Positions 18,059-33,304 of a stretch of 42,165 nt of DNA are shown piece after piece; the first letter of the stretch is position 1, and the number at the start of each line of letters is the position of its first letter. The notes beneath the pieces are model-generated. The model saw only the letters and a list, made by a program, of their open reading frames with translations, searched no databases and had not been told where the DNA came from. The translations under genes and the position numbers were made by a program. The stretch comes from a virus. The stretch spans positions 1 to 42,165 of the IMG/VR virus record IMGVR_UViG_3300029116_000014; one strand, given 5' to 3'.

Positions 18059-18061
18059 GAA

Positions 18062-19212: not shown

Positions 19213-19376
19213 GGTTTACGACATACAAGCGATTCGTACCGGCACACCGGAAGATCGGATACCGGTACGCCTGCTGGGCGCGGAACCACGGAGGCTGGGC
19301 GAAGATGAAAAAAGGGTATCGCAAGCTCGCCAAGAAGCGACTGAAAAGAGAGATGGAAAGGGACGCGAGGCAATGA
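19209..19376 (+). CDS. Small basic hypothetical protein (55 aa)
   Basis: ATGA overlaps at both ends indicate translational coupling. Confidence 0.4.
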   Translation: MRFTTYKRFVPAHRKIGYRYACWARNHGGWAKMKKGYRKLAKKRLKREMERDARQ

Positions 19377-19687: not shown

Positions 19688-20075
19688 GGGAATTTTAATG
19701 GGTCGGCTGACGCGAGACCCGGAGTTGCGCCACACACAGAGCGGCACAGCGGTTTGTTCGTTCACGCTGGCGATTGACCGAGACCGCAAGGACGCAAACG
19801 GCGAGAAGCAGGCCGATTTTATCGACTGCGTCGCATGGAACAAGCAGGCAGAATTCGTTGCACAGTGGTTCTCGAAGGGGATGATGGCAATCGTTGTTGG
19901 CCGTATCCAGTCCCGCAAGTGGCAAGACCAGAACGGCAACAACCGCACTGCGATTGAGATCAACTGCGAGGATGTTTCCTTCGGCGAGACGAAGAAGAAC
20001 CGCGAGAACAGCGGCGGACAGACAAGCGACTTTATCGCGTCGGACGAGAGTGACCCGGACGACTGCCCGTTTTGA
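19677..20075 (+). CDS. ssb: Single-stranded DNA-binding protein
   Basis: MLNKGILMGRLTRDPELRHTQSGTAVCSFTLAIDR...FIDCVAWNKQAE...GRIQSRKWQDQNG, with an acidic tail ending DDCPF. Confidence 0.92.
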   Translation: MLNKGILMGRLTRDPELRHTQSGTAVCSFTLAIDRDRKDANGEKQADFIDCVAWNKQAEFVAQWFSKGMMAIVVGRIQSRKWQDQNGNNRTAIEINCEDVSFGETKKNRENSGGQTSDFIASDESDPDDCPF

Positions 20076-20088
20076 GAGGTGACAGGGG

Positions 20089-20826
20089 ATGCTGACGAAC
20101 GGGCACATACAGATTTACCGACAGCTCACAGAATGGGGGTGGTACAAGGATGTACCCACCTGCAAGCTGTGGCTGCATATCCTGCTGAGGGCAAACTACA
20201 AGGAAAGCCAGTTCATGGGGAGCGAGATTCACCGAGGCGCGTTTGTGACGAGCTTGCAGGGGATTGCAGACGAGAGCGGGCTAACGGTAAAGCAGGTGCG
20301 CACGGCACTCGGAAAGCTCAAGAAAACCGGAGAAATCACGGTGGAAAGCAACCGGCATTACACAGTAATCACGGTATGCCGGTATGACGAGTATCAGGGC
20401 GGCGAGAGGGAGGAAGCGCCTGCAAAGCAGCCGCCGAAACCGGAGATGCCGAAAAAGACGCAGAGTCCAAAGCCGAAAGAGCCTGACCTTGCAGAGCGGT
20501 TTTCTGAGCCTGTGCTTTCTGCGGTGCGCGACTGGATCACCTACAAGCAGGAGCGGCGCGAGGCGTACAAGGCAGTCGGCTTGAAGTCTCTGCTGACAGA
20601 GATAGAAAACCGAGTAAAGCGCCACGGAGCGGCGGCAGTAGCCGAGGTTATCCGGCTGAGCATGGCGAACAACTGGAAGGGCATTATCTGGGATCGCATC
20701 AAGGACGCGCCAAAGCAGGCGGAAGCAAAGACGGAACCGGAGGAAACGCCGGACTGGGAGATTGCATGGCGAGCACAGAAGGAAGAAATTAGACGGCAAA
20801 TGAGAGAGGAAGGTTATGAGAGGTAG
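20089..20826 (+). CDS. Replisome organizer / replication initiation protein (winged-helix N-terminal domain, conserved phage C-terminal domain)
   Basis: The N-terminal W..YKD...KLWLHILLRANYKE...RGAFVTSLQGIADESGLTVKQVRTALGKLKKTGEI pattern matches. The C-terminal FSEPVL..WITYKQERREAYK...NNWKGIIWD is as in phage replisome organizers. Confidence 0.65.
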   Translation: MLTNGHIQIYRQLTEWGWYKDVPTCKLWLHILLRANYKESQFMGSEIHRGAFVTSLQGIADESGLTVKQVRTALGKLKKTGEITVESNRHYTVITVCRYDEYQGGEREEAPAKQPPKPEMPKKTQSPKPKEPDLAERFSEPVLSAVRDWITYKQERREAYKAVGLKSLLTEIENRVKRHGAAAVAEVIRLSMANNWKGIIWDRIKDAPKQAEAKTEPEETPDWEIAWRAQKEEIRRQMREEGYER

Positions 20827-21169
20827 AAAGAAAGATACTCTCTGCTGGGACTGCACGAAAGCCGCTGCGAAGAGCTGCGCATGGTCTGGGCGGTTCGAGC
20901 CGGTGAAAGGCTGGAAGGCCGAACGAGTGCAGCGGCAAGACCTCAATGGCGGCGAGACGTTCCACGTTATCAGCTGCCCGGAGTTCGAGCCGGACAGGCG
21001 GCCGGAACAGCCGAAACGCAAGGACGCTTACACAGAACACGACCTCTGCGTCATCCGAAACAGTCTGGAGGACGGCGAAAGCGTGAGCATGATCGCGTGG
21101 AGACTCGGCAGGAGTTTGACTGCTGTAACGTACAAGATCAGGAAAATGAGGCGAGCGGGTGAATTATAA
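20816..21169 (+). CDS. Hypothetical Cys-cluster plus HTH-like protein
   Basis: 117 aa. It has an N-terminal CWDCTK...C...SC cluster and a C-terminal SVSMIAWRLGRSLTAVTYKIRKM, which is HTH-like. Confidence 0.5.
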   Translation: MRGRKKDTLCWDCTKAAAKSCAWSGRFEPVKGWKAERVQRQDLNGGETFHVISCPEFEPDRRPEQPKRKDAYTEHDLCVIRNSLEDGESVSMIAWRLGRSLTAVTYKIRKMRRAGEL

Positions 21170-21542
21170 GTTTACGATACGAGGCACGCTGCCGGGACTA
21201 AACGAACTGATCGAGGCGGAACGGCGAAACCGATTTATCGGTGCAAAGCTGAAAAAGCAGTATGAAGCGGTTGTTATGCGGGCGGCGCGAAGCCTCGGGA
21301 ATGTGGAGTTTGAAGAGCCGGTGTACATGGCGTACCACTGGTACGAGAAGGACCGGCGGCGCGATAAGGACAATATCTGCGCGTTTGGGCGCAAGGTTAT
21401 TCAGGACGCGCTGGTAAAGGCGCGGTATCTGAGTAACGACGGATGGAAGAATATCCGAGGGTTTGAAGATCACTTTGAAGTGGACGCGAAAAATCCGCGG
21501 ATTGTGGTTGAGATTTGGGAGAGTGCGGATGAAACAGGTTAA
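21159..21542 (+). CDS. rusA: RusA-family Holliday junction resolvase
   Basis: GTG start. LPGLNELIEAERRNRF, RRRDKDNICAFGRKVIQDALVKARYLSNDGW and EVDAKNPRIVVEI match the recalled RusA layout. Confidence 0.75.
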   Translation: MNYKFTIRGTLPGLNELIEAERRNRFIGAKLKKQYEAVVMRAARSLGNVEFEEPVYMAYHWYEKDRRRDKDNICAFGRKVIQDALVKARYLSNDGWKNIRGFEDHFEVDAKNPRIVVEIWESADETG

Positions 21543-22347
21543 ATGTGAGATGTTCTGCGATAATTTCCAGAACTACAAGCGTTACGGGATTCCGAAAGCG
21601 CAGCTTGTTATTGCGGATATTCCGTATAACATCGGAGCGGACGCTTACGGTAGCAATCCGATGTGGTATGTCGGCGGAGATAACAAGAACGGCGAGAGCA
21701 AGAAGGCAAAGAGCAGTTTCTTTCGGACTGACGGCTATTTCAAGATTGCAGAGTATATGCACTTCTGTAATCGGCTTTTGAAGAAAGAACCGAAGGAAAA
21801 GAACGCCGCACCGGCGATGATTGTATTTTGCGCGTTCGACCAGATGCAGACGGTGATGGAGTACGGCAGGCGGTACGGGTTCAAGAACAGTTATCCGCTG
21901 TTTTTCACAAAAAATTACTCGGCACAGGTACTTAAAGCCAATATGCGCATTGTAGGCGCAACCGAATTTGCGGTCGTACTGTATCGCGACAAGCTGCCGA
22001 AGTTTAACAACGGCAGGCAGTACGACGAGGACGGCAAGGTCATTCGCGGAAGCGGAAAGATGGTGTTTGACCATATCGACTGGGAGCGGGACGGCAGAGA
22101 GATTCCCAAGCTGCACCCGACGCAGAAGCCGGTGAAGGTGCTGAAAAAGCTGATTGAGATTTTCACAGACCCGGGCGACACGGTAATTGACCCATGCGCC
22201 GGGAGCGGTTCGACGCTGAGAGCGGCGCGGGAGCTGGGAAGAAACAGCTATGGGTTTGAACTGGATAAGCACTTCTATCAGATGGCAAAAGACGAAATGC
22301 TGAAAGAGCCGGAAATGGTGCAGATTGGGATGGAGGGCGTTGTGTAA
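21529..22347 (+). CDS. DNA methyltransferase (N6_N4_Mtase family, beta-class order)
   Basis: VIADIPYNIG (a DPPY-type catalytic motif) lies N-terminal, followed by HPTQKP and VIDPCAGSGSTLRAARELGRNSYGFELD (AdoMet motif). The start at ATG 21529 is chosen; 21550 is an alternative. Confidence 0.85.
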   Translation: MKQVKCEMFCDNFQNYKRYGIPKAQLVIADIPYNIGADAYGSNPMWYVGGDNKNGESKKAKSSFFRTDGYFKIAEYMHFCNRLLKKEPKEKNAAPAMIVFCAFDQMQTVMEYGRRYGFKNSYPLFFTKNYSAQVLKANMRIVGATEFAVVLYRDKLPKFNNGRQYDEDGKVIRGSGKMVFDHIDWERDGREIPKLHPTQKPVKVLKKLIEIFTDPGDTVIDPCAGSGSTLRAARELGRNSYGFELDKHFYQMAKDEMLKEPEMVQIGMEGVV

Positions 22348-23010
22348 ATGAAAGTCTTAGTAGCATGCGAGGAATCGCAGACTGTGTGCAAGGCTTTTCG
22401 AGAGCGTGGACACGAAGCATATTCCTGTGATATACAAGAACCGTCCGGAGGTCATCCCGAGTGGCATATCCTCGGCGACGCACTCGCTGCGGTAGAGGGT
22501 GGGATAATAACTACCATGGACGGTAAGAAACATGAGGTAGGCAAGTGGGATTTGCTGATTGCACATCCGCCTTGCACTTACTTAACCAACGCAGGGGCGC
22601 GGCACTTGTGGGCACATCACCAGTTACAGCCGGAACGGGTAAAGCTCGGTATCCGGGCGCGTGATTTGTTCATGCGGTTCTGGTGGGCAGATATACCGCG
22701 AATCGTGATTGAGAACCCTGTTCCGTCAAGCGTGTTTTGTCTGCCGGAGTACACGCAGATTATCAATCCATACCAGTTTTACGGTGCCGAACACCCATAC
22801 ACGAAGAAAACGTGTTTGTGGGAAAAGAACGTAGAACCGTTAGTGCCGATTGAAGCGGTAGAACCGGAGAAAAGCAGAGTGCTTCATATGAAGAATGGTA
22901 CAGTTCGCCGTTCCTGTTGGGTGATGGATCAGAACAGAGACCGGGCGAAAGCGAGAAGCAAGACGTTCCCGGGCATTGCTCGGGCGATGGCGGAACAGTG
23001 GGGAGGTTGA
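22348..23010 (+). CDS. Minimal C5-cytosine-methyltransferase-like protein (atypical)
   Basis: 220 aa. LLIAHPPCTYLTNAG resembles motif IV (the PC dipeptide) and RIVIENPV resembles motif VI (ENV-like). The N-terminal VLVACEESQTV lacks the FxGxG glycines. No long target-recognition domain is present. Confidence 0.5.
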   Translation: MKVLVACEESQTVCKAFRERGHEAYSCDIQEPSGGHPEWHILGDALAAVEGGIITTMDGKKHEVGKWDLLIAHPPCTYLTNAGARHLWAHHQLQPERVKLGIRARDLFMRFWWADIPRIVIENPVPSSVFCLPEYTQIINPYQFYGAEHPYTKKTCLWEKNVEPLVPIEAVEPEKSRVLHMKNGTVRRSCWVMDQNRDRAKARSKTFPGIARAMAEQWGG

Positions 23011-23086
23011 AGCTGCAACGGCGACAGCGAGCACCGGGCGGATTTCCGGTTGGAAGATGAGACGTGCGAGGAATAGGAGAAACAGA

Positions 23087-23281
23087 ATGACGCATGATTG
23101 CAGCGGTTGCGGCTATATGAAGTCGCTTGAAGATAATTCCGGAAGAACGATATATTTCTGTATGTTTGATCAGAGTCCGTTCTATTTGGAGGAAACTGGA
23201 ATTGACGGCGACTGTGAATTGGACGATTATGCAGAGGAAATTTATCGGAGAAGCGGAGAATGGGAGGAAAACAATGAATAA
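23087..23281 (+). CDS. Small Cys-rich hypothetical protein (64 aa)
   Basis: Internal ATG of ORF 22976..23281, preceded by AGGAGA. MTHDCSGCGYM...FCMF...GDCELDD. Confidence 0.45.
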   Translation: MTHDCSGCGYMKSLEDNSGRTIYFCMFDQSPFYLEETGIDGDCELDDYAEEIYRRSGEWEENNE

Positions 23282-23867
23282 AAAGTTTGAATTTACCGGA
23301 GAAACCAAAGTAATTTTAGGGCATACCCTGCATCGCATTCGGGCGTTGATTTCGTTCGGTGAAGTCGAAGCTGGGGAACTAGGCGGATGGATTGAAAAAG
23401 AGGAAAACCTTGATGCTTCCGGCAACGCATGGGTTTCCGGCGACGCACGGGTTTCCGGCGACGCACAGGTTTACGGCAACGCATGGGTTTCCGGCGACGC
23501 ACGGGTTTCCGGCGACGCACGGGTTTCCGGCAACGCATGGGTTTCCGGCGACGCACGGGTTTACGGCAACGCATGGGTTTCCGGCAACGCATGGGTTTCC
23601 GGCGACGCACGGGTTTACAAGCGCGGTGCGATTTTCTGGATTTCCAATGTTGGTTCGCGCGATGACACGGCAACTTTCTTCGCCTGCCGGGATAAAAAAA
23701 TCAAAGTAATTGTAGGTTGCTTCTTCGGAGATTTGGACGAGTTTGCCGCCGCAGTACAGAAAACGCAAGGAGATAACACACACGCCAAGGTATACCGCCT
23801 TGCAATCGAAATGGCGAAGGAACGCATTAAGATGGATGATATGCCGGAGGAAAGCAATGACGGTTGA
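23274..23867 (+). CDS. Hexapeptide-repeat (predicted beta-helix) protein
   Basis: 197 aa. The central part is made of 6-aa units (GNAWVS/GDARVS/GDAQVY), about 11 units, encoded by an 18-bp tandem DNA repeat at about 23410-23620. Confidence 0.7.
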   Translation: MNKKFEFTGETKVILGHTLHRIRALISFGEVEAGELGGWIEKEENLDASGNAWVSGDARVSGDAQVYGNAWVSGDARVSGDARVSGNAWVSGDARVYGNAWVSGNAWVSGDARVYKRGAIFWISNVGSRDDTATFFACRDKKIKVIVGCFFGDLDEFAAAVQKTQGDNTHAKVYRLAIEMAKERIKMDDMPEESNDG

Positions 23868-23928
23868 TGAGCTGCGGCGCAAGTCCAACATGGGGCTGCG
23901 GGAGCTGAGAGAATTGGAGGAGATGTAA

Positions 23929-24543
23929 ATGGGTAAGTGTAAGCCGGGTGATATTATCACCATTAAAGGAACGGAATTTGCGGTGCTGGACGTAGAGAAA
24001 GGCGTGGCAAAGGACGGCAAAGACCAGTTGTTTGTGCGGCTGAAAGAACCGGTCGGTATTACGGAGTTCGGTCCAACAAATGACTACAGATGCAGCACGT
24101 TACGCCGTGCGGTAAACAAGTGGTTTAATAAGTACGAGGTTGCCGCATATGACGACCTGATTTATTCCCGTGAGGTCAGCCTGCTGACGATGGATGGGCG
24201 CGAGAATTATGGGATTGTTTATCGCTTAGCAGCACCGTTGACATTTGATGAGTGGCGCAAGTATTCACGCTATATTCCAGATTGCGAGAAAAGCTATTGG
24301 CTGGCAACCGGAGATGGCGCAACGGGGCGCTACGGCGTGGACGCCGCGATGCTCGTGTACCCCAATGGCGCTTGGAGCAGCGGCGGCTGCTCGAACGCGT
24401 ATGCGGTGCGTCCGGCTTTGGTCGTGTCGGAAGAGCTGATTGATACGCCGAAGGACGACGGCTTAAGCAAGTATAGCACGATGGAGCTGATTCAGGAGCT
24501 TGAGAAAAGGGTGATGAGGGATGAGCGAGTTTTGCAAGAATGA
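23929..24543 (+). CDS. Hypothetical protein (204 aa)
   Basis: ORF with SYWLATG...VYPNGAWSSGGCSNAYAVRPALVV, a motif I recall from an uncharacterised Firmicute domain family. Confidence 0.55.
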   Translation: MGKCKPGDIITIKGTEFAVLDVEKGVAKDGKDQLFVRLKEPVGITEFGPTNDYRCSTLRRAVNKWFNKYEVAAYDDLIYSREVSLLTMDGRENYGIVYRLAAPLTFDEWRKYSRYIPDCEKSYWLATGDGATGRYGVDAAMLVYPNGAWSSGGCSNAYAVRPALVVSEELIDTPKDDGLSKYSTMELIQELEKRVMRDERVLQE

Positions 24544-24790
24544 AAGGCATGGAGGCATATGTGTCAAAACGGGTACTTATTGTAATCTTGGCGCTTGTCC
24601 TTACGAACAGTTAGAACAATTTGCACCAGTGGTGAATGGGCGGTGGGAGCAAGATGCGGACGGCGATTGGTATTGCACAAATTGTGATGAAGTTGTTGCT
24701 ATCTGCGAAAGTGGCAGAGAACGAACTTATCGCAAGCCGTACTGCCCCAACTGCGGGGCAAAGATGGACAGAGGTGCAGACAATGATTGA
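24521..24790 (+). CDS. Zinc-ribbon hypothetical protein (89 aa)
   Basis: Cys pairs: CTNCDEV...C and CPNCGAKM. Confidence 0.5.
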   Translation: MSEFCKNERHGGICVKTGTYCNLGACPYEQLEQFAPVVNGRWEQDADGDWYCTNCDEVVAICESGRERTYRKPYCPNCGAKMDRGADND

Positions 24791-25031
24791 GTTTAAACCC
24801 TGTCCGTTTTGTGGAGGAAAAGCGACTGTTCAATGTAAGCACACCGAAACATACGACGTTTGGGCGAACCACCCCGTTTTGTGTGCTAAGTATCGTGTTG
24901 GCTGTGAAAAGTGTGGAATTTATTTCTGGCAGTTGCACGAAATCCAATTGACAGATGGCCAACCTGCTGTTATTAAAAACGGATATGACGAAGCTGCCGA
25001 AGCATGGAACAGGAGGGCAAGCAATGATTGA
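24783..25031 (+). CDS. Lar-family restriction alleviation protein (copy 1)
   Basis: MIEFKPCPFCGGKATV...C.KCG...AAEAWNRRA. This matches the recalled Lar pattern of an N-terminal CPFCGG and a C-terminal AWNRR. Confidence 0.7.
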   Translation: MIEFKPCPFCGGKATVQCKHTETYDVWANHPVLCAKYRVGCEKCGIYFWQLHEIQLTDGQPAVIKNGYDEAAEAWNRRASND

Positions 25032-25257
25032 GCTTAAACCTTGCCCGTTCTGTGGAGGGACAAAATTGAAAATCGACAGCAAACGAACTTTTCAGTATGG
25101 AGGGAAGAGGCATTGTTCTGTTACTGTAAGGTGTATGCAATGTCACGCGAGAAGTCCTGTTGTTGGTATCAATATGCCTGATGGGCGGTATAACGAGCGT
25201 GAAATTTGTGAAAGTGCTGTAATCGAAGCATGGAACAGGAGGGCGGACAATGCGTGA
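25024..25257 (+). CDS. Lar-family restriction alleviation protein (copy 2)
   Basis: MIELKPCPFCGGTKLKI...CMQCHA...VIEAWNRRA. It overlaps copy 1 by 8 nt. Confidence 0.7.
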   Translation: MIELKPCPFCGGTKLKIDSKRTFQYGGKRHCSVTVRCMQCHARSPVVGINMPDGRYNEREICESAVIEAWNRRADNA

Positions 25258-25429
25258 AATCACCAAAGCCGACATGGACAAGCCGATTGAACCGAAAATG
25301 GCGCGTGACGCTGTTACAGCGGTGCGCGATATAGCTGCGTATTTAACGGTGGGTGAGTGGTGCTTGATTATGGCAGGCGTGAAGAAAGCCGTTGAGAGAA
25401 TGACACAGGAGGAAAATAATGAGGTTTAA
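25250..25429 (+). CDS. Hypothetical small protein (59 aa)
   Basis: The ATG overlaps the upstream stop (ATGCGTGA) and the stop overlaps the next start. It is below the ORF-track cutoff. I translated it by hand and found no internal stop. Confidence 0.4.
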   Translation: MREITKADMDKPIEPKMARDAVTAVRDIAAYLTVGEWCLIMAGVKKAVERMTQEENNEV

Positions 25430-25922
25430 GAAAGATGGGAAAGTGTACAACGTTATAGATGCGGTACATGAATACTGTAAAAACACAGATTGCCTTGAAT
25501 GCAAGTTGTACGACAAAAACACAAATATGTGCGTAGACGTGAGACCTGAGCGAGCAGCCATTTTAATGGGTTATGAGGCAATCGAGGACGACACGCCCAC
25601 TATTGACGAGGCAGTCGAGGAAAACAGCGGGAACGTGAAACGCAGGCTGACCCGTGCGGACATCCTGCACGCGGCGGAGAAGTGCGTATGCGGACAGCGC
25701 GAGACGGACTACGGCACACCGGAGGATAACTTTAAGACGATTGCGGAGCTGTGGGAGGCGTATCTTAATAAAGCCTGCATAAGGGGCGTGAACGTGCGCG
25801 TAGAGGCAAAGGACGTTGCTGTAATGATGGCACTGCTCAAGATTGCACGTATTGCGGCAGGCGGCGGAAAGGCTGACAGTTGGATTGATCTTGCAGGCTA
25901 TGCGGCTTGCGGGGCGGAGTGA
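25419..25922 (+). CDS. Hypothetical protein with a conserved phage C-terminal domain
   Basis: 167 aa. The C-terminal ETDYGTPEDNFKTIAELWEAYL...DVAVMMALLKIARIAAGGGKADSWIDLAGYAACGAE resembles a widespread uncharacterised phage domain. Confidence 0.55.
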   Translation: MRFKKDGKVYNVIDAVHEYCKNTDCLECKLYDKNTNMCVDVRPERAAILMGYEAIEDDTPTIDEAVEENSGNVKRRLTRADILHAAEKCVCGQRETDYGTPEDNFKTIAELWEAYLNKACIRGVNVRVEAKDVAVMMALLKIARIAAGGGKADSWIDLAGYAACGAE

Positions 25923-25936
25923 GAGGGGGTAACGGA

Positions 25937-26194
25937 ATGAAGTACCGTAAGAAGCCCGTGGTTATTGAGGCTGTCCGGTGGACAGGAAAGAACCAGACGG
26001 AAATCGACAAGTTCTGTGGAATGAAAGTCGTGTGGAGTGAGAACAAGAAAACATTCCTTGTTTTAACTCTTGAGGGAACTATGCTGGCATCTACTGGCGA
26101 CTACATCATCAAGGGTGTAAACGACGAGTTCTACCCCTGCAAGCCGGATGTTTTTGAAAAGACGTATGAGCGGGTGGACGAAAATGACGATTGA
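25937..26194 (+). CDS. Hypothetical protein (85 aa)
   Basis: Internal ATG of ORF 25907..26194. MKYRKKPVVIEAVRW...GDYIIKGVNDEFYPCKPDVFEKTYE is a recurrent small phage protein pattern. Confidence 0.55.
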   Translation: MKYRKKPVVIEAVRWTGKNQTEIDKFCGMKVVWSENKKTFLVLTLEGTMLASTGDYIIKGVNDEFYPCKPDVFEKTYERVDENDD

Positions 26195-26552
26195 TGAAGC
26201 TATCAAGGTAGCAGAAGCCAACGCGGAACTCTATTCGAGCTTCGAAGGGTGGGGACAGGCGGTAAGTTTTTACGACACATGCGCTGCCATGCTGAAAGTA
26301 ATGAAGAAGATGATCGAGGAAGGCAGACCGGAAGACGCGCCGGATGCGTGGCAGGAGCGCAGAAAGCGCGAGTACCGCGAGACCAAGGACCGGTACGAGA
26401 GGCTGCACTGGATGATTACCAAATACGAGGCAGGCGTGCTTGAGTATACGCCGAAGTGCTCGATCGAGCTGTTAAAGCAGCAGAAAAAGCACATGGGCGA
26501 GTACCTGCACGATCTGGAAGCCGGCGCATTTGTGGAAGGAGTGGAACTGTGA
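26184..26552 (+). CDS. Hypothetical protein (122 aa)
   Basis: Internal ATG of ORF 26148..26552, overlapping the upstream gene end. Confidence 0.5.
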   Translation: MTIDEAIKVAEANAELYSSFEGWGQAVSFYDTCAAMLKVMKKMIEEGRPEDAPDAWQERRKREYRETKDRYERLHWMITKYEAGVLEYTPKCSIELLKQQKKHMGEYLHDLEAGAFVEGVEL

Positions 26553-26722
26553 CGATTAACCAGGCCATCCGCATCCTCGACCCGGAAACCTCGGCCGAGG
26601 CGTTAGGCGAGATCGAATACTATGGCGGACTGCGCGGCAAAGAGAAGGTGCTGGTCGCCTGCGACGAGGCGTGCCGCGTAGCGGTTCAAATTATGAGAAA
26701 ATACATGGAGGAACAGAAATGA
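26549..26722 (+). CDS. Hypothetical small protein (57 aa)
   Basis: The GTG start overlaps the upstream stop (GTGA) and the stop overlaps the next ATG. Confidence 0.4.
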   Translation: MTINQAIRILDPETSAEALGEIEYYGGLRGKEKVLVACDEACRVAVQIMRKYMEEQK

Positions 26723-27108
26723 ACAAGAAAATCACGGCGGCACTGCTCTGCGGTGCTATGATGTGTAGTCTGTCGGCCTGCAGGGAGAGCGAGCGCGTTG
26801 CGTACAACATCTCGAAGGAGGCGGACAATTTCAACGTCACGCGCCGTCTGGAAGTCATCAACGCGCGTACGGACAAGCCGGTGTTTGAGCTGATCGGCAA
26901 CTTCGCCATCTCGAACAACAGCGAGAACGAGCTGGAGGTGACTGTCGAGACCGGGCAGGGCGTTTACAAGAAACACCTTGTGTACCTCAACGACTGGACG
27001 ATCTACGTTGTGGAGGACGTCAGCGGCGCTTACGTGGACAAGTTCCACTACGAGGTGAATTTCCTGCCGGAGATGATCATTCCAGTTACGGTGACGTCGC
27101 ATGACTAA
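26719..27108 (+). CDS. Lipoprotein (129 aa)
   Basis: Signal peptide with a lipobox: MNKKITAALLCGAMMCSLSAC. The mature part is beta-rich. Confidence 0.7.
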   Translation: MNKKITAALLCGAMMCSLSACRESERVAYNISKEADNFNVTRRLEVINARTDKPVFELIGNFAISNNSENELEVTVETGQGVYKKHLVYLNDWTIYVVEDVSGAYVDKFHYEVNFLPEMIIPVTVTSHD

Positions 27109-27347
27109 ATACAGCGACAAGGTCCGGCGTTACTTATTATGGTGATACGCCGTGCCGGAACTGCGCTTACTGGCGGACGCTCGGAAACTATAAAAATCTG
27201 AAGCTGTGGGCGTGCCACTACGCATTGGTTAACCGGCATTCGAGGGGATGCGAGCCGGGCGAAAGGTGCACAAAAAGAACAGAAAGCTACCGCAGACGGA
27301 TAGCTTTCAAACACGACGGAAGCACCGAGGAGATTACAAGCCGATGA
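27105..27347 (+). CDS. Cys-rich small protein with no usable start codon in frame (possible 1-nt indel after ATG 27139)
   Basis: An 80-codon open frame (…GDTPCRNCAYWRTLGNYKNLKLWACHYALVNRHSRGCEPGERC…) ends in a TGA that overlaps the ATG of the next gene (ATGA at 27344-27347). It contains no ATG or GTG in frame, and its only TTG is late and lacks an SD. ATG 27139 is one base out of phase. Confidence 0.4.
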   Translation, partial: LNTATRSGVTYYGDTPCRNCAYWRTLGNYKNLKLWACHYALVNRHSRGCEPGERCTKRTESYRRRIAFKHDGSTEEITSR

Positions 27348-27757
27348 CAGCGAAAGAATGGCTGATGCGCGGGCGCGCACTGGAAAAAACGATTACAGCC
27401 TTGCAGGAGGCGCGGAAACGCGCCTATGCACGGGCAACGGGCGCAACCGCGCCGGTAAGGGATACGCCGGGCGGAAAAGGGAGCACGGGGAACAAGGCAG
27501 ACCCCTACATCGAACTGGGCGAGAAGATCGCAGAGAAAGAAAACGAGCTTGCGGAAATATACGGCGAGATTGTGCGCGTGCTGGGCGAAATGCGGGATAA
27601 CGAACTGCAAACGCTCCTGCTTGAACGTTACGTGAACGGCGCAACATGGGCGCAGACGGCGCGGCGGCTGCATTACAGCGAGGCGCACGTGAAAGGCTAC
27701 ATGCACAGAATGGCACTGAATGCTGTGGATAAGTTAATACCCCACAATACGCAATAA
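27344..27757 (+). CDS. Sigma-like late transcriptional activator (coiled-coil N-terminus plus region-4-type HTH)
   Basis: Internal ATG of ORF 27248..27757. 137 aa. LLLERYVNGATWAQTARRLHYSEAHVKGYMHRMALNAVDKL resembles phage RinA/ArpU/DUF1492-type activators. It lies upstream of the packaging module. Confidence 0.65.
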   Translation: MTAKEWLMRGRALEKTITALQEARKRAYARATGATAPVRDTPGGKGSTGNKADPYIELGEKIAEKENELAEIYGEIVRVLGEMRDNELQTLLLERYVNGATWAQTARRLHYSEAHVKGYMHRMALNAVDKLIPHNTQ

Positions 27758-27779
27758 TGTGATATACTGATATCGTGGA

Positions 27780-28530
27780 AGAGCTCCAAGGGAGCAAAAC
27801 CACGGCATTCACGGGTTGATAAATTCCGGTTATGTCCTCCTAATTCTCTCCCCTGCTTCGGCGGGGGACACGCTCCAAAGGCTGCACGAGGCCGGAGGGG
27901 CTCACACTTCCTTTCGCCCAAGGCATTCCCTAATGAGACGGGAAACCGTCTCAGCCTGTCCGCTGCGTCTGCACGAGGGCGCGCGGGCTCTTTGACTCTC
28001 GGGAATACAGTTCAAGGAAACGCGGCAGAGATGCCGCACATGCTCCAAAGCCTGCATGAGGGCGGCGGGGCAAAAAAAGACAGCCGAACGGCTGCCCATA
28101 ATCTGACGGCTCGGAAAGACGAGCACGGGCGCAGCTTACGGAACGGCGCGCCGACACCTATTCTGACGGCCCGGAAAGACGGGCATCTGTTTGCGAACTT
28201 TGCCGGACTGCCCGGCAGGCCTTGCGCAGGGCCAAAGCGTCAGTACACAGCGCAGCAGCACGTGTATCAGGGAGTAATTCCCTGCAACGGGGTAGCGCCC
28301 TGCGGTGAAAGTCCGCCGGTTTGCAGGCCGATAACTGCGCGCGAGGGGTTCAAAATTCGAACGTCCTATTTTGTAGCAGCCCCTGAGCGCAAGCCGGGAA
28401 ACCGTCCGTAAAGCCGGACGCAAGGCGCAGCGATACGCGCACATACCGCGCAAGCGGTATACATGCAGCCCAAAGTTGATACACGGTGCAATTCCGTGTG
28501 GCTGCACCTCCAATTAGTCATAAGTAAAAG
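27780..28530 (+). ncRNA. Candidate large structured non-coding RNA (class unassigned)
   Basis: About 750 nt with no credible ORF. On the + strand it has many short perfect helices capped by UUCG/GAAA/GCAA/GUAA-type loops. Two hairpin families are repeated with compensatory base changes. The region ends at a strong terminator hairpin. Confidence 0.6.
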
Positions 28531-28568
28531 CACCTCCCCGGGATGGCTTCGGGAAGGTGCTTTTGCTT
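28527..28568. terminator. Bidirectional intrinsic terminator hairpin
   Basis: AAAGCACCTCCCCG-GGATGGCTT-CGGGAAGGTGCTTT forms a 14-position stem with one mismatch. An A-run lies upstream and a T-run downstream, so it can terminate both the + RNA and the convergent minus-strand cassette. Confidence 0.8.
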
Positions 28569-28614
28569 AGATGTTGCTTAGATGTTGCTTAGATGTTGCT
28601 TAGATGTTGCTTAG
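28565..28614. repeat. Tandem 11-bp repeat GCTTAGATGTT x 4.5
   Basis: There are four perfect copies (28565-28608) and a partial fifth. The partial copy contains the stop codon (28611-28613, minus strand) of the 53-aa ORF. Confidence 0.9.
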
Positions 28615-28772
28615 CGGTTATCATAAGCGCATAGAGCCTCGCACAGCTCGCGCGTCGGGCACTGAGAGCAGTCGCACTCCGAAATGATAACGTTTTCGCA
28701 CAGTGCGCGAGGATCGGCCATAAAAACGGCCTCGGCTGCTCGGTAGTCCTCAGGGGTAATGATGTTATACAT
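28611..28772 (-). CDS. Small Cys-rich protein (53 aa)
   Basis: MYNIITPEDYRAAEAVFMADPRALCENVIISECDCSQCPTRELCEALCAYDNR. The start lies 3 nt after the upstream gene's stop. It is below the ORF-track cutoff. Confidence 0.5.
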   Translation of the reverse strand: MYNIITPEDYRAAEAVFMADPRALCENVIISECDCSQCPTRELCEALCAYDNR

Positions 28773-28775
28773 GGG

Positions 28776-29042
28776 TTACGCCTCCAGCCGGTAGGACATC
28801 GCGCTGTTAAGCAGTGCGAAAGTGATGCACTCGTAAAATTCGCCGCGGGTGATTCCCTCCGGCGCGCCGGTGCCCTGCTCGATCAGGTGGGCGACGGTCT
28901 CGACATTATGGGCGGTCGGCTCGTGAGAAGATACCCAGTCGAGCATATGCTCGTAATCGTTGCACGTCATGGACGTGCAGAAGTCGTTTTCGATGCATGC
29001 CTTGCGGACGCTGTACGCGCTCCAGCTTGCCTTGATGGTCAT
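28776..29042 (-). CDS. Hypothetical protein (88 aa)
   Basis: AAAGGAAG SD on the minus strand. No family recognised. Confidence 0.55.
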   Translation of the reverse strand: MTIKASWSAYSVRKACIENDFCTSMTCNDYEHMLDWVSSHEPTAHNVETVAHLIEQGTGAPEGITRGEFYECITFALLNSAMSYRLEA

Positions 29043-29093
29043 TTTATATCTTCCTTTCTGCGGGGTTATACCGCCCCGCCCGGTGTAGGTGGA

Positions 29094-29639
29094 TCAGTCA
29101 ATAGCGCAGTAGGTAAGGGCATCATAGCCCATATCAGCAAGCGCCTTGGTCATTACCTCGGCAGCGGTCTCGCGCTTGTATGCCTGACCGGGAATGTGGA
29201 AGCAGATAACCCAACGCCGGTTAAAGCACTTCCACTCAAAGCAGCCGCATCCGGCCTCCTTGCAAGCCTGCTCAATCTTGGCGGACTGCCAGCGCGGGAG
29301 CAGGAGCGAGGGCGCATCTAAATTGCAGGCGCCGCCGTCCTCAACTTGTGCGGCTGCGGCTTTGCCGATCTCGTACACCTTGCGCAGATCGTCGCGGAGC
29401 TTGGCGTACTTGCCGGTAAGCGGCTTGGGCGCTGCGGGCTTGGTGTCTGCCGGGTAGGCGGTCAGCAGCTCGTCAAAGTCTGCGATTGCGTCCGCCTCGG
29501 TGCGTGCCGTGCGGCAGTCGATCTCGTGGCCGTTGGGGTACAGGAGCATAGTCTCGTATTTGCCCGGAGTGAGTTCGCAGGTGTCGAGCATAACGCGGCG
29601 GCCGTTGTGTTTGTACTCGGTGTGTTTGATGGTGTTCAT
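29094..29639 (-). CDS. Hypothetical protein (181 aa) with a Cys-rich C-terminal domain
   Basis: ATG at 29639, preceded by GGAGG (8-nt spacing). The C-terminus has DGGACNLDAPSLLLPRW...KEAGCGCFEWKCFNRRWVICFHIPGQAYKRETAAEVMTKALADMGYDALTYCAID. Confidence 0.6.
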   Translation of the reverse strand: MNTIKHTEYKHNGRRVMLDTCELTPGKYETMLLYPNGHEIDCRTARTEADAIADFDELLTAYPADTKPAAPKPLTGKYAKLRDDLRKVYEIGKAAAAQVEDGGACNLDAPSLLLPRWQSAKIEQACKEAGCGCFEWKCFNRRWVICFHIPGQAYKRETAAEVMTKALADMGYDALTYCAID

Positions 29640-29703
29640 GGTGTGTACCTCCAAAATTAAAATTTATGGGTGCGGGCTTTAAGGGTGAACCCGCGAGAAC
29701 CGT

Positions 29704-30048
29704 TTAGCTGTGCATGATGCAACCGCTGTGGCTGCGGTCGAAGTCACCTTTGCACTTGCCGTCCTTGTCGTACCAACTGCCGGTGCTCTCTGCGGCAAAG
29801 CGGGAGCAGGAGAGGCACATGGGGTTTACAAGGCAGAAGCGGCGAAGGTCGCTGTCTTCCGGTGCTTCCTGATCGAGCCATGCGTCAAAGCCTTCCGGGT
29901 AACGCTTCTCGATTTCGTCCATCAGCCAACCGCGCGTGATTGCGGTTTCTTCACTGTTGCTCAGGTGCTCGGTCATCTCCCAGCAGCCAAAGAGCTGCTC
30001 TGCGGTCAGGCTTGCGATCTTTGCGGTTGCTTTCTCGGTTGCGGTCAT
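29704..30048 (-). CDS. Hypothetical protein (114 aa), Cys-rich C-terminus
   Basis: ATG at 30048, preceded by AAAGGAAG. The C-terminus has CLVNPMCLSCSRF...GKCKGDFDRSHSGCIMHS. Confidence 0.55.
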   Translation of the reverse strand: MTATEKATAKIASLTAEQLFGCWEMTEHLSNSEETAITRGWLMDEIEKRYPEGFDAWLDQEAPEDSDLRRFCLVNPMCLSCSRFAAESTGSWYDKDGKCKGDFDRSHSGCIMHS

Positions 30049-30092
30049 ATTGATTACTTCCTTTCGGCGTTCGTTTCCTTTACTGTGACTAT

Positions 30093-30198
30093 AGTATAAT
30101 ATATTTGCGCAAGTATAGCAATGGGCAAAATAACTATATTTGCGCAAGTATATTTGTGGGTTATGTATATTTACACAAACATATCTGAGGCGTATAAT
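30093..30198. promoter_or_regulatory. Divergent promoter region with two identical 18-bp near-palindromic operators
   Basis: TATATTTGCGCAAGTATA occurs at 30100-30117 and 30135-30152 and is 16/18 self-complementary. The + promoter is TTTACA (30170-30175), 17 nt, TATAAT (30193-30198). The minus promoter is TTGCTA (30121-30116), 17 nt, TATACT (30098-30093). Operator copy 1 lies inside the minus-promoter spacer. Confidence 0.65.
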
Positions 30199-30223
30199 AG
30201 CCATCGTTAGGAGGTGCTGTTAT

Positions 30224-30424
30224 ATGCCATCCAGCAAGGCGCAGCAGAAAGCAACCAATAAGTACATCAACAAGGCTTATGACCGGGTTAATTTAACCCT
30301 GCCGAAAGGCAAGAAAGAAGAGATCAAATCCCATGTGGAAGGCCGGAGCGAAAGCGTGAATGGCTTTATCGCCCGTGCGATTGATTGCCAGATGGCGCGA
30401 GACAAAGAGGAGGACAAAGCGTAG
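30224..30424 (+). CDS. Ribbon-helix-helix (Arc/CopG-like) small DNA-binding protein
   Basis: Internal ATG of ORF 30140..30424, preceded by AGGAGGTG. 66 aa. DRVNLTLPKGKKEEIKSHVEGRSESVNGFIARAI fits a beta-strand-helix-helix layout. Confidence 0.6.
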   Translation: MPSSKAQQKATNKYINKAYDRVNLTLPKGKKEEIKSHVEGRSESVNGFIARAIDCQMARDKEEDKA

Positions 30425-31131
30425 TGTATGATAGAGTAGATGCAAGTAGCGGAGAGAGCCTGTGCCGTACTATGGCGGAGGAATGCGATACCGCGATCTT
30501 AGCATTTTCCACAGGTAAGGACAGCATTGCAGCGTGGTTGCAGCTGAGAAAATATTTCAAGCATGTAATCCCGTATTATTGTTACACCGTGCCAGGTCTG
30601 GAATTCGTCGAAAACAGCCTCGCATACTATGAGGATTTTTTCGGCACTCACATTTACAGGCTGCCGCACAGATCGTTGTACCGCATGCTGCGGAATCTGG
30701 TATTCCAATCGCCGGAGCATGTAACCAAGATCGAGGCGCTGGACTTGCCGGGCGAAGAATATGATGATGCCGAGATCGGCGAGATCATCCGCGAATGCAA
30801 GCGACTGCCGGAATGCGTATACACTGCGACCGGCGTTAGAATGGCAGACAGTCCTATGCGGCGTATTGCCATGAAAACACATGGAGCGATCAACCACAAT
30901 GCAAAGCGGTTCTATCCGGTGTTCGACTGGGTAAAAGCCGACCTGCTGCGCGAATTTGATGCAAGCGGTGTTCGCCTGCCGGTAGACTATAAGCTGTTCG
31001 GCAGAACGTTCGATGGTATTGATTATCGGTTCTTGAAGCCGATCAAGGAGAATTTCCCGAGGGATTACGAAAAGATCATCACATGGTTCCCGCTGGCGGA
31101 ACTGGAGTTATTCAGGAGGGGTGAGCTGTAA
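30424..31131 (+). CDS. PAPS reductase / PP-loop ATPase family protein
   Basis: The GTG start overlaps the upstream TAG (TAGTG), with AGGAGG 8 nt upstream. ILAFSTGKDSIAAW is a PP-loop-type SGGKDS-like motif. It lies next to the terminase genes. Confidence 0.7.
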   Translation: MYDRVDASSGESLCRTMAEECDTAILAFSTGKDSIAAWLQLRKYFKHVIPYYCYTVPGLEFVENSLAYYEDFFGTHIYRLPHRSLYRMLRNLVFQSPEHVTKIEALDLPGEEYDDAEIGEIIRECKRLPECVYTATGVRMADSPMRRIAMKTHGAINHNAKRFYPVFDWVKADLLREFDASGVRLPVDYKLFGRTFDGIDYRFLKPIKENFPRDYEKIITWFPLAELELFRRGEL

Positions 31132-31496
31132 TGGGATATTGGAACGACAACGAAGTTAAGGAAACAAAAGATGATCACATTGAATTAGAGCAGCTCGAAA
31201 GCGAGTGCCTCGATGAGCTGGGAGATGTAGAAAAGAGTTTCCGTGAGCGCATGGGCGCTGAGAATAAGCGATTTAAGGATATGTGCGATACCGAATATTG
31301 GTGCTGCATCTGCTTCACCAGCCGTGCGCAGAAGGAGGAATTTTTGGAGTCTCTGGAGTTTGACGGCGATTTGAAGTATATCGAAGGAAAAGAATTCGCG
31401 CGAGCGGTGAAAAGACCGGTTAAAACCGAGGATTTGCGGTTTGCGCGTATCGGCAAAGGCTCAAAAGATTACTTGAGCAGGCTCATAGATGAGTAA
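31131..31496 (+). CDS. Hypothetical acidic protein (121 aa)
   Basis: ATG overlaps the upstream stop (TAATG). No family recognised. Confidence 0.55.
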   Translation: MGYWNDNEVKETKDDHIELEQLESECLDELGDVEKSFRERMGAENKRFKDMCDTEYWCCICFTSRAQKEEFLESLEFDGDLKYIEGKEFARAVKRPVKTEDLRFARIGKGSKDYLSRLIDE

Positions 31497-31559
31497 AAAA
31501 GACGAAAAGGGCTGTCTTTCGGGATGGCTCTTTTTCATACCCGAAAGGAGGTGTAAGGC

Positions 31560-31682
31560 ATGGGCAATGGTTATGGTAGTAGCAGACTTGCGAACCGTGG
31601 ACGCGTTGGCAATCGTCGCCGTAGCGTAGCGGTTGGCCGTCGTGCGGCTGGCGCTCGTGGCGCCCGCTCGTCCTCAACCTAA
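31560..31682 (+). CDS. Micro-ORF: 40-aa Arg/Gly-rich highly basic peptide
   Basis: AAAGGAGGTG SD. MGNGYGSSRLANRGRVGNRRRSVAVGRRAAGARGARSSST. It is followed by a terminator. Confidence 0.35.
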   Translation: MGNGYGSSRLANRGRVGNRRRSVAVGRRAAGARGARSSST

Positions 31683-31702
31683 GCAAATACAACTCAACAG
31701 AT

Positions 31703-31737
31703 AAAGCACCGAGGTTTTGCCCGGTGCTTTTCTTTTG
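31703..31737 (+). terminator. Rho-independent terminator upstream of terS
   Basis: AAGCACCG-loop-CGGTGCTT forms an 8-bp stem, followed by TTTCTTTTG. Confidence 0.7.
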
Positions 31738-31755
31738 AGGAAAGGAGGTTAGAAG

Positions 31756-32073
31756 ATGCCTAGAGGCAGACCGAAGAAAGCTATTGACCTTGACGCTGTG
31801 CAGGAGCTTGCAAGCGAGGGCAATACGCAAGAAGAAATTTCAAAGGCGCTCGGTTTTTCGCGTGCGACGTTCCACAATCGCAAGGAAGTAACCGAGGCTT
31901 ATTATAAAGGCGTTGCAGAAATGAAGCTGAGCCTGCGACACTGGCAGTTTAACGCTGCCCGTGGCGGTAACATCCAGATGCTTATCTGGTTGGGCAAGCA
32001 GTACCTCGGACAGCGCGACACAGTAGAGGAAAAGATCGAAAGCGAAGGCGTGAAGGTGATTATCGATGTCTGA
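31756..32073 (+). CDS. terS: Terminase small subunit (HTH type)
   Basis: MPRGRPKKAIDLDAVQELASEGNTQEEISKALGFSRATFHNR... It lies immediately upstream of the large subunit and overlaps it. Confidence 0.8.
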   Translation: MPRGRPKKAIDLDAVQELASEGNTQEEISKALGFSRATFHNRKEVTEAYYKGVAEMKLSLRHWQFNAARGGNIQMLIWLGKQYLGQRDTVEEKIESEGVKVIIDV

Positions 32074-33304
32074 GTTGAAGCTCTCGCAGATCATCGGACC
32101 GGCATTTTACGCCGTTGCGCACGATGTGTTTGCACATGGGCACACGCATTACGATGAGAGCGGCGGCCGTGGCTCGCTGAAATCGTCGTTTGTGTCGATT
32201 GTCGTTCCGCTGCTGCTTATCCACAACCCCGGAACGCATGCGCTTGTGTTACGCAAGGTTGCAAACACCATCCGCGATAGTGTATACGCACAGTATGTAT
32301 GGGCAATTGGTGAGCTGGGCATGGCTGACTACTGGGACGCGAAGGTATCGCCGATGGAGCTGATATATCGCCCGACCGGACAGAAAATCATGTTTCGCGG
32401 CGCTGATGACCCGATGAAGATCAAGTCAATCAAGGTTCCGTTTGGTTATATTGCTGTTACGCATTTCGAGGAGAAAGACCAGTTCTCAGGACGCGCGGAA
32501 ATCCGAACGATCTTGCAGTCTACAATGCGCGGCGGTGATAAGTATTGGAACTTTGAGAGTTATAACCCTCCGATCAGCCGCGACAACTGGGCGAACAAGG
32601 ATAGTTTAGAAGAACGCCCTGACCGTCTCTGCCACCGCAGCACGTACCTTGAAGCGCCGCGCGAGTGGTTGGGCGATCAGTTTATTTATGAGGCGGAGCA
32701 CCTAAAACTGACGAACGAACGAGCGTATCAGCATGAATACCTCGGCATTCCGGTTGGCACGGGTGGCAATGTCTTTGAAAACCTTGAACTGCGAGAAATC
32801 ACAGATGATGAGGTGGCAACGTTCGATCGTATCTATCAAGGCGCTGACTGGGGATGGTTCCCCGACCCGTTCGCTTTTATCCGCGTCCACTACGACAGAG
32901 CGCGTGAGACGGTGTATTTTATCGATGAGATATACAAAAACAAGCTGAGTAACGAGGAAAGCGCCGGTATTATCATGGAGCGCGGCTATAATGATACGTT
33001 TATCACCTGCGACAGTGCAGAGCCAAAAAGCGTTGCAGACTACCGCGCTATGCGACTGCCTGCCAAAGAGGCCGTGAAGGGTCCCGGCAGCGTCGAGTAC
33101 GGCATGAAGTGGCTACAGCGCAGGACACTTGTCATCGACCGCAAGCGAACGCCGCACGCCTATGATGAGTTTGTGAACTATGAGTATGAGCGCGACAAGG
33201 ACGGCGAGATCATCAGCGGCTATCCAGATGAAAAGAACCATCTGATTGACGCCACGAGATACGCCCTTGAGCGCGTTTACAGAAGAATGGGAGTGATTGC
33301 TTGA
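32066..33304 (+). CDS. terL: Terminase large subunit (PBSX/Terminase_3-like)
   Basis: 412 aa. Walker A-like ESGGRGSLKSS, a nuclease-half pattern (GADWGW...DPFAF, CDSAEPKS, HLIDATRYAL), and the expected position. Confidence 0.9.
   Translation: MSELKLSQIIGPAFYAVAHDVFAHGHTHYDESGGRGSLKSSFVSIVVPLLLIHNPGTHALVLRKVANTIRDSVYAQYVWAIGELGMADYWDAKVSPMELIYRPTGQKIMFRGADDPMKIKSIKVPFGYIAVTHFEEKDQFSGRAEIRTILQSTMRGGDKYWNFESYNPPISRDNWANKDSLEERPDRLCHRSTYLEAPREWLGDQFIYEAEHLKLTNERAYQHEYLGIPVGTGGNVFENLELREITDDEVATFDRIYQGADWGWFPDPFAFIRVHYDRARETVYFIDEIYKNKLSNEESAGIIMERGYNDTFITCDSAEPKSVADYRAMRLPAKEAVKGPGSVEYGMKWLQRRTLVIDRKRTPHAYDEFVNYEYERDKDGEIISGYPDEKNHLIDATRYALERVYRRMGVIA

Follow-up and report, generated by a model that had tools for sequence, protein, structure and literature searches.

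An Arc-like repressor over back-to-back promoters and its exchangeable orphan genes in a temperate phage: a candidate early-pulse accessory module

A ribbon-helix-helix (RHH) repressor acting over back-to-back promoters is a familiar type of switch. In the immI region of phage P22, one of the two arms transcribed from the Pant/Pmnt promoter pair begins with the RHH gene arc, a topology that is mirrored in the locus described here. The RHH protein Aca14 binds inverted repeats over promoter elements; it represses both the operon that encodes it and an adjacent one, whose genes are small and for the most part without annotation (PMC13551039), and the RHH protein Reg(p576) of the pLS20-family plasmids has operators that flank strong promoters and give transient, high expression in the entry phase of a Firmicutes element (PMC8708921). 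We analysed a locus of this type in a 42,165-nucleotide stretch of viral DNA (IMG/VR record IMGVR_UViG_3300029116_000014, positions 1 to 42,165; the whole stretch is called the window below), in which four leftward genes, c1 to c4, are separated from a rightward Arc-like RHH gene by a spacer of 175 bp. The cargo of the switch consists of orphan and fast-changing genes. We give an even chance to the interpretation that the locus is a two-armed accessory module whose RHH switch yields an early pulse of exchangeable cargo.

The spacer (30049-30223) is AT-rich (GC 0.35) and contains two divergent sigma-70-like promoters (Table 1) in the region, 30093-30198, where the original prediction had placed a divergent promoter. 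The -35/-10 layout of the leftward promoter, with an operator in its spacer, recurs in all relatives with a homologous scaffold. The two identical 18-bp near-palindromes that had been noticed earlier, 35 bp apart and one of them in the spacer of the minus-strand promoter, were confirmed (O1 and O2); their sequence occurs exactly twice in 42 kb, against a chance expectation of 0.01, and each copy is a palindrome at 16 of its 18 positions. To these we added a degenerate third copy (O3), which the original prediction had missed. Every RHH type has a third site at the position equivalent to O3, and a search of the 42-kb window for further copies with up to three mismatches found none.

The small protein encoded at the head of the rightward arm, first described as an RHH protein from its letters, is of the Arc/MetJ type by profile. 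A profile of seven RHH alleles matched P22 Arc first (5e-5), followed by pArc, AvtR, CopG, ParG, VapB and Mnt, and a beta-alpha-alpha domain of about 45 amino acids (aa) of the RHH/Arc/MetJ class was detectable in this way; Arc-like PHROGs and the RHH_1, RHH_5 and NikA-like Pfam families matched below their curated cut-offs. Human-gut metagenomes yielded 220 contigs with the exact protein and 949 with a close variant.

Comparison of the RHH proteins and operators in relatives' loci from IMG/VR and metagenome contigs showed that the operators change in step with the RHH allele, in at least 12 specificities and at conserved positions, and that their sequence tracks neither the allele of the sigma-region-4-like late activator encoded nearby nor the cargo. 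TTTGCGCAA-type sites invariably accompany RHH proteins of type A (at least 93% identity), including loci in which the identity of the late activator falls to 46-55%. RHH proteins of type B (42% identity) were found with ATCATTGAGCAATGAT sites, placed identically at all three positions of a homologous promoter scaffold, and locus L029 has a type-B RHH gene and ATCATTGAGCAATGAT-type sites although its late activator is 97% identical to that of the window. More RHH-operator pairs were present in the same scaffold, in near as well as in distant loci. In a two-by-two case, the beta-strand D-A-I-T-L-R is paired with the operator centre GT(A/T)GAC and the beta-strand D-N-I-M-L/I-R with the centre GTTAAC, two alternating residues of the strand (A and T versus N and M) thus tracking the centre of the operator. 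Independently of this, two types of N-terminal arm are paired with the outer bases ACGT..ACGT or CAGT..ACTG. In the RHH fold, alternating residues of the beta-strand face the DNA. This co-variation excludes the late activator as the binder of the repeats and, as evidence from sequence comparison, strongly supports the RHH protein as the predicted reader of all three operators, the role for which it had been named as a candidate.

The synteny of related phages was then compared, and showed a mosaic, dispensable array beside a conserved RHH gene. Among 66 IMG/VR loci with c2, a handful contained c1 and about ten contained c3 and c4, with many other small genes in their stead; these substitutes included a 154-aa family and orphans of 55, 77, 111 and 145 aa. 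Further members of the relatives' arrays were multi-zinc-ribbon proteins of 329 and 485 aa (Pfam DZR), XRE-type helix-turn-helix proteins, a J-domain protein and a GNAT acetyltransferase. We also read 24 public contigs encoding the identical RHH protein, in which ten places, together with similar ones listed with them, made up 19 contexts. The array beside the RHH gene consisted of c1-c4 in one context (L082), of c1-c3 in two, of c2-c3 in seven and of other genes in one, and it was absent from eight. The genes therefore shuffle independently, and the coherent four-gene cassette of the original prediction, whose exact gene set was found in a single other contig (L082), has to be given up.

A precise deletion (L083, 4860-5005) underlies the form without an array (L083, L090 and L091; contigs of up to 227 kb); it joins the 3' part of c4, ending in GCAGTCGCACTCC, to the Shine-Dalgarno sequence (SD) of the RHH gene in AGGAGGTGCTGTTATATG. 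Lost with it are c1-c3, the two promoters and all three operators. Clean loss in 8 of the 19 contexts indicates that the array and its switch are dispensable, and the idea of a self-contained accessory module, with its own promoters and bracketed by terminators, was borne out. The cargo is an exchangeable mosaic array of which c2 is the most persistent member.

The rightward arm and the terminators complete the anatomy of the locus. In the sequence TAGTG (30422-30426), the stop codon of the RHH gene shares bases with the GTG start of a PAPS-reductase-like gene, with a GAGGAGG SD upstream, which implies that the two genes are translationally coupled. Heading a rightward operon in this way, the RHH protein is not simply the dedicated repressor of the cassette, as it had first been portrayed. 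The 235-aa form of the PAPS-reductase-like protein is the one called in public contigs; its match to Pfam PAPS_reduct (0.01) is below the curated cut-off, and its gene is optional, being absent after RHH type B. The two hairpins before terS have folding energies of -19.9 and -20.5 kcal/mol, and no sigma-70-like promoter was found in 30200-32200. At the other end of the locus, the terminator hairpin AAAAGCACCTCCCCGG...CGGGAAGGTGCTTTT folds at -32.4 (plus strand) and -28.7 kcal/mol (minus strand), with a z of about -6 for either strand, and is conserved in relatives. With the RHH gene at the head of a rightward operon and hairpin terminators at both ends, the locus is a two-armed unit of about 3 kb (28521-31540).

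Two other observations concern the locus and its edges. An inverted repeat of 24 nt, 79% complementary, exactly flanks the array and its switch (28525-28548 and 30199-30222). It was set aside as a candidate site of inversion, being 79% complementary, consisting mostly of SD/anti-SD-like GGAGGTGCT and differing in the type-B leader, and it is probably due to chance. An Arg-rich open reading frame (ORF) of 40 aa with a strong SD lies between the two hairpins on the terS side (31560-31682), and public gene calls disagree as to whether the genuine small ORF before terS is one of 46 or one of 40 aa.

Table 1. Positions of the features of the locus and of the genes that surround it in the window.
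Feature	Position	Strand	Remarks
Integrase	10200-11282	-	
CI-like repressor	11917-12408	-	
Ant-like gene	12720-13511		phrog_130, 1.7e-88; beside CI-like repressor
Sigma-region-4-like late activator	27248-27757	+	phrog_36, 4e-15; closes long early region
Bidirectional intrinsic terminator	28521-28569	both	ends leftward array and plus-strand structured RNA
11-nt tandem repeat TTGCTTAGATG	28563-28617	-	about 4.5 copies; 3' untranslated region, overlaps c4 stop, before terminator
c4	28772-28611	-	53 aa; small protein with five invariant Cys
c3	29042-28776	-	88 aa; orphan, narrow family
c2	29639-29094	-	181 aa; near-core array member, two domains
Junction element upstream of c2	29640-29703	-	hairpin GCGGGTTCACCCTTAAAGCCCGC, then U-rich tract
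c1	30048-29704	-	114 aa; N-terminal domain and optional Cys-rich tail
Leftward promoter TTGCTA-17-TATACT	30121-30093	-	sigma-70-like
O1 TATATTTGCGCAAGTATA	30100-30117		inside 17-nt spacer of leftward promoter
O2 TATATTTGCGCAAGTATA	30135-30152		exact second copy; between the two -35 boxes
O3 TATATTTACACAAACATA	30166-30183		degenerate copy, 78% identity to O1; over rightward -35 box
Rightward promoter TTTACA-17-TATAAT	30170-30198	+	sigma-70-like, 11/12 consensus positions
Arc-like RHH protein	30224-30424	+	66 aa; phrog_13890, 9e-21
PAPS-reductase-like (PP-loop-like) protein	30424-31131	+	235 aa; phrog_2302, 7e-24
121-aa gene	31131-31496	+	no assigned function; last of rightward arm
Two terminator-like hairpins with U-tracts	about 31504-31540, 31703-31735	+	between rightward arm and terS

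We infer from this anatomy that the Arc-type RHH protein, as the product of the first rightward gene, binds the three near-palindromic operators of the spacer. O1 within the leftward promoter spacer and O3 over the rightward -35 box stand where a repressor classically occludes a promoter, which suggests that bound RHH would close the leftward array tightly while only limiting the expression of its own operon. When the phage enters a cell that contains no RHH protein, both host-type promoters would fire; as RHH accumulates, the leftward genes would be turned off, and the outcome would be a brief early pulse of variable small accessory proteins, in this phage c1-c4. In a lysogen, the autoregulated RHH protein would hold the array silent. 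The cargo would most likely act in host takeover or in counter-defence at the start of infection, as an entry-phase role of this kind fits best with the predicted timing, the turnover and orphan nature of the cargo and the J-domain, zinc-ribbon and GNAT proteins found alongside it in relatives; such a role, in anti-defence or in host takeover, is plausible by analogy only.

Several points weigh against this interpretation. The timing of the pulse is deduced purely from the positions of promoters and operators. No cargo protein resembles a characterised anti-defence, host-takeover or other protein in the families searched. The early operon of the phage already has genes of anti-restriction type, for a Lar-like protein and an N6/N4 methylase, and the phage thus owns recognisable anti-restriction-type genes elsewhere. 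The variants that lack both promoters and all operators retain an intact RHH gene, which is odd if operator binding is the only task of the protein, but the deletion may be recent. The RHH gene is co-transcribed with the PAPS-reductase-like gene and heads the region leading to terS; the protein might accordingly serve chiefly that arm or the timing of the late genes, more than the leftward cargo.

Two alternatives deserve to be weighed at some length, and we find both of them unlikely. According to the first, the leftward genes are expressed from the resident prophage as a lysogenic-conversion moron or a prophage defence cassette, to the advantage of the host (other phages might be excluded, for instance), with the RHH protein tuning their level. 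An own promoter and terminator, a variable presence and a GC content unlike that of the phage (0.54-0.60 in the cargo versus 0.525, and 0.73-0.81 versus about 0.62 at third codon positions) are what one would see of such a moron in a temperate phage. However, the best operator is located in the leftward spacer and the RHH promoter is near-consensus, so that RHH at steady state should silence the array in a lysogen, and a repressor that silences these genes in lysogens argues against a role in prophage defence. PADLOC identified no defence family, gave nothing for c1-c4 or RHH and matched the rightward genes only at chance level (E 0.004-0.04), and the products are tiny and without enzymatic domains.

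The second alternative concerns the late genes. Right after the stop codon of the late activator, an extended -10 promoter, TGATATACT (TGGTATAAT in relatives), is followed by (G/A)TATCGTG (27760-27785, plus strand). This promoter is conserved in all relatives, with activator alleles that are 46-100% identical. It resembles the lambdoid PR'/Q arrangement and may therefore be a late promoter whose transcripts read through terminators; as a hypothesis, late transcription that starts there and reads through would cross the array antisense. The promoter is followed on the plus strand, between late activator and array, by an untranslated structured stretch of about 800 nt (27775-28570) with GNRA and UUCG hairpins. 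A module, GCUCC-AAA-GNCU-GCAYGA-GGNC-GGN-GGGGC, is repeated in this stretch, and its copies differ by a compensatory change. The minimum free energy of the stretch, compared with shuffled sequences, gives z values of -6.7 for the plus strand and -3.1 for the minus strand, two of its short blocks are conserved in all relatives, and no Rfam family was assigned to it.

On the strength of this arrangement, the RHH protein could be a timing gate on the packaging side, mainly controlling the rightward operon and preventing the collision of leftward transcription with late transcription that comes from the conserved promoter past the late activator and passes through the terminators, with the cargo being incidental. 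The RHH gene is always the first gene on the terS side, the extended -10 promoter (TGnTATAAT-like) with its TATCGTG is present in all relatives whatever the activator allele, and terminators stand directly upstream of terS with no sigma-70 promoter in between. The deletion variants place RHH-terS straight behind the RNA and the terminator without a promoter of its own, which would be consistent with late read-through. This reading is weakened, however, by the strongest operator guarding the leftward promoter rather than the rightward one, by the optional nature of the PAPS-reductase-like gene and by the weakness of the Q-like matches of the late activator (E 0.015-0.064), read-through and antitermination being deduced.

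Decidedly doubtful is a second immunity region like P22 immI, in which one cargo protein (e.g. c2) would be an antirepressor or a modulator of induction held off by RHH and the diversified alleles would reflect heteroimmunity among related phages. Arc is the best match of the RHH profile in the PDB, and diverse RHH/operator specificities exist within one scaffold. But a canonical Ant gene is already present beside the CI-like repressor, c1-c4 have no similarity to antirepressors, and the array can vanish entirely. We consider very improbable a toxin-antitoxin-like or abortive module with RHH as the antitoxin: RHH proteins are common among antitoxins, and weak matches to the HicB-like, ParD and TacA RHH families were seen, but the gene that overlaps the RHH stop codon is PAPS-reductase-like rather than a known toxin, searches of Pfam, NCBIfam and PADLOC found no toxin family in either arm, and the cargo is divergent and freely exchanged. 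The analysis thus gave no evidence for the defence or toxin-antitoxin module first suggested. Firmicutes phage late activators act near terS, and the 18-bp repeats do lie upstream of the packaging side, but the idea that they are sites of the sigma-like late activator rather than of RHH can be dismissed with near certainty, being contradicted by repeats that stay constant with activators of 46-55% identity and are wholly different at 97% identity with the other RHH allele of L029.

The preferred reading, an RHH-gated pulse of exchangeable cargo, directs attention to the four leftward genes. All four minus-strand ORFs (28611-30048) were recovered as originally drawn, tightly packed with intergenic gaps of 64, 51 and 3 nt and each preceded by an SD (GGAGG or AAGGAAG) 6-10 nt upstream. 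Homologues were found for c1, c2, c3 and c4 alike, and the ratios of non-synonymous to synonymous polymorphism (pN/pS) point to purifying selection on c1, c2 and c4 and to weak constraint on c3. As had been reported, no member matches a known family: c1-c4 had no family match in Pfam, NCBIfam or PADLOC and their sequence profiles had none in the PDB. The sole match in Pfam, PHROGs, NCBIfam and PADLOC was that of the C-terminal domain of c2 to phrog_23592, a family of no known function. Of the description of the products as Cys-rich, the quoted motifs are indeed present, but their cysteines are conserved only in c4 and in the optional tail of c1.

The protein c1 (pN/pS 0.28) has a conserved, helical N-terminal domain with the motif ..WExTE..RGWLMDEIEKR.P.GF..WLD. 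The Cys-rich tail is missing in about half of its 31 homologues, and in unrelated low-GC elements the N-terminal domain occurs by itself, encoded directly behind strong promoters at the head of operons. The protein c2 (pN/pS 0.1-0.6) combines an N-terminal four-strand sheet and helix with a C-terminal alpha/beta domain. None of its 186 homologues has a Pfam annotation; PLTGKYAKLRDDL and DGGTCNxDAP..LPRW are its conserved motifs, and C105 is its sole conserved cysteine, those of GCGCF..WVICF varying freely. Structure prediction, at first suggested for all four proteins, was run for c2 and c4. The AlphaFold2 model of c2 (predicted local distance difference test score, pLDDT, 92.5) had no match in the PDB below E 0.016 and matched only uncharacterised phage proteins in BFVD.

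An element of about 50 nt, the junction hairpin, is kept upstream of c2 whichever gene precedes it and is absent where c2 comes first after the promoter. Its fold is weak and not significant alone (z -0.9). Its presence with c2 behind varied genes suggests cassette-like exchange, and its role could lie in processing or attenuation or in marking a boundary of recombination. The protein c3 (pN/pS 0.55-1.6) has 13 homologues, all of them unnamed, with distant copies of 30-52% identity in the ribozyme-punctuated arrays L044, L046 and L055 described below.

The smallest product, c4, has the Cys pattern C-x7-C-x-C-x2-C-P-x4-C, in which C25, C33, C35, C38 and C44 are invariant in its 21 homologues (22 sequences with c4). 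Comparison with L029 showed four synonymous changes and no non-synonymous change. Judged by this pattern, c4 probably binds metal or an Fe-S cluster. Its AlphaFold2 model is of moderate confidence (pLDDT 73), and at this confidence no match to PDB folds was found. Homology to the CxxCPxxxxC protein F17 of the relatives' arrays was not supported (hhalign probability 2%). The motif of WhiB-like (Wbl) proteins consists of four cysteines, C-Xn-C-X2-C-X5-C, and c4 shares with these proteins C25...C35-x2-C38-x5-C44 and a CP.R motif, to which it adds the invariant C33. Unlike WhiB, c4 has 53 aa, is without the C-terminal turn or the basic tail, and comes from a phage whose host is not an actinobacterium. 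Its assignment as WhiB-like was not retained, as there was no match to Pfam Whib (22 members) and none to a PDB sequence or fold; the resemblance remains at the level of the motif. The 11-nt tandem repeat that overlaps the c4 stop codon has 2-4 copies in relatives and, given this variation, looks like a variable-number repeat of the slippage type.

More distant loci with c2 derive from Coprococcus, Faecalibacterium and Moryella. In distant loci with c2 at 39-49% identity, the RHH-gated operon has Rfam ribozyme-class motifs in nearly every spacer, on the coding strand (L041 618-700, L043 2804-3955, L044-L046, L051, L052 3300-7650, L053, L058, L060, L077 7731-7811 and L078). RAGATH-5 occurs 5-8 times per locus in these operons, twister-sister is located directly upstream of c2, and pistol and twister-P5 are also present. 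No such motifs were found in the window and its close relatives, even below the Rfam threshold; for the window as a whole, Rfam gave no family at the gathering threshold and nothing credible below it in the RNA region or the cassette. In the distant phages, c2 is part of RHH-gated operons that adjoin the PHROG 'primase' family, that is, early-type genes. The ties of these relatives to ribozyme-punctuated operons suggest a context for the ribozymes, namely the processing of a repressor-gated burst transcript. A 413-aa protein of the distant arrays was considered as ArdC-like, an identity for which Pfam gave no support. The Rfam cis-regulatory motif GP20-b was also observed (L002 198-258, L007 584-644 and L039 281-341 (-)); it sits on the packaging/head side, in relatives with a different type of terminase, and has no match in the window.

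It is conceivable, though we hold it only tentatively, that the RHH-gated promoter pair, with its many mutually exclusive repressor-operator specificities, is a common chassis for a large pool of exchangeable orphan genes of the temperate phages of gut Clostridia, including the twister-sister/pistol/RAGATH-5 arrays. In this broader and more doubtful proposal, the cargo, with c2 as the persistent member and c4 as a new small metal binder, would be an entry-phase set for counter-defence or takeover, and a resident relative with the same RHH allele could silence it in trans, so that specificities would be driven to diversify.

A temperate, siphovirus-type phage of 42 kb is represented by the window in complete or near-complete form, with genes for an integrase, a CI-like repressor, Ant, terL, a portal and a major head protein. 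The plus strand carries the early region (12720-27757) and, from 30224, the packaging region; terS, terL and the portal and major head genes are downstream of the late activator. The early operon on the plus strand encodes an N6/N4 DNA methylase (21463-22347), a Lar-like restriction-alleviation protein (24636-25031), a crAss001_48-related protein (26148-26552) and a Phage_VG64 protein (26671-27108), the last of which bears the PHROGs label RDF. Close relatives of the proteins bear the names Butyricicoccus sp. and Agathobaculum sp., which point to Butyricicoccus or Agathobaculum, among the gut Clostridia, as hosts. Among GenBank phages, blastn found no close relative of the module region, similarity being at the level of the terminase only (e.g. 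Blautia phage), and tblastn with c2 found no match.

To our knowledge, almost nothing is known about counter-defence in the phages of butyrate-producing Clostridia. The RHH gene with its operators could serve, in the manner of Aca genes, as a guilt-by-association marker for entry-phase accessory genes in these phages, and the natural series of repressor-operator alleles, with its clean two-by-two swap, is material for the rules of RHH recognition. If the cargo turns out to have no phenotype, the locus would be merely another moron-like hotspot with a tidy switch.

Phage morons, reportedly a concept of Hendrix and colleagues, are said to be typically expressed from the prophage. The locus resembles them in its own promoter and terminator, its unusual GC content, its site between conserved genes and its presence in some close relatives but not in others, but differs from them by a built-in cognate repressor that is predicted to keep the genes off in lysogens. 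Weinberg and colleagues reportedly described, in 2015, phage-like gene arrays of Clostridia with twister, hammerhead, pistol and RAGATH motifs. RHH-gated operons with such motifs (RF02681, RF02679, RF02685) harbour distant homologues of c2 (and c3), whereas in the window only a simple conserved hairpin precedes c2.

Comparison with P22 immI showed that in both loci a small RHH gene opens one of the two arms that leave a back-to-back promoter pair, an operator lies within or over the promoters, and the late genes of a temperate phage are nearby; Arc is also the best match of the RHH profile among solved structures, although this similarity is at the level of the superfamily only. Unlike immI, the locus has three spaced 18-bp operators and a single repressor with no counterpart of Mnt, and its cargo, in place of an antirepressor, is made up of orphan genes in a variable array. 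The inverted repeats overlapping promoters that characterise Aca14 are represented here by O1, in the leftward spacer, and O3, over the rightward -35 box; Aca genes, however, are downstream of acr in the same operon, and the RHH gene is divergent from its cargo. An Aca-type regulator shares its operon with a validated anti-CRISPR or anti-defence gene, and no such gene accompanies the RHH gene. Reg(p576) differs in belonging to a conjugative plasmid with recognisable establishment genes and in having another operator layout. Aca14 and Reg(p576) are nevertheless precedents for RHH-gated, transiently expressed counter-defence or establishment genes (PMC13551039, PMC8708921).

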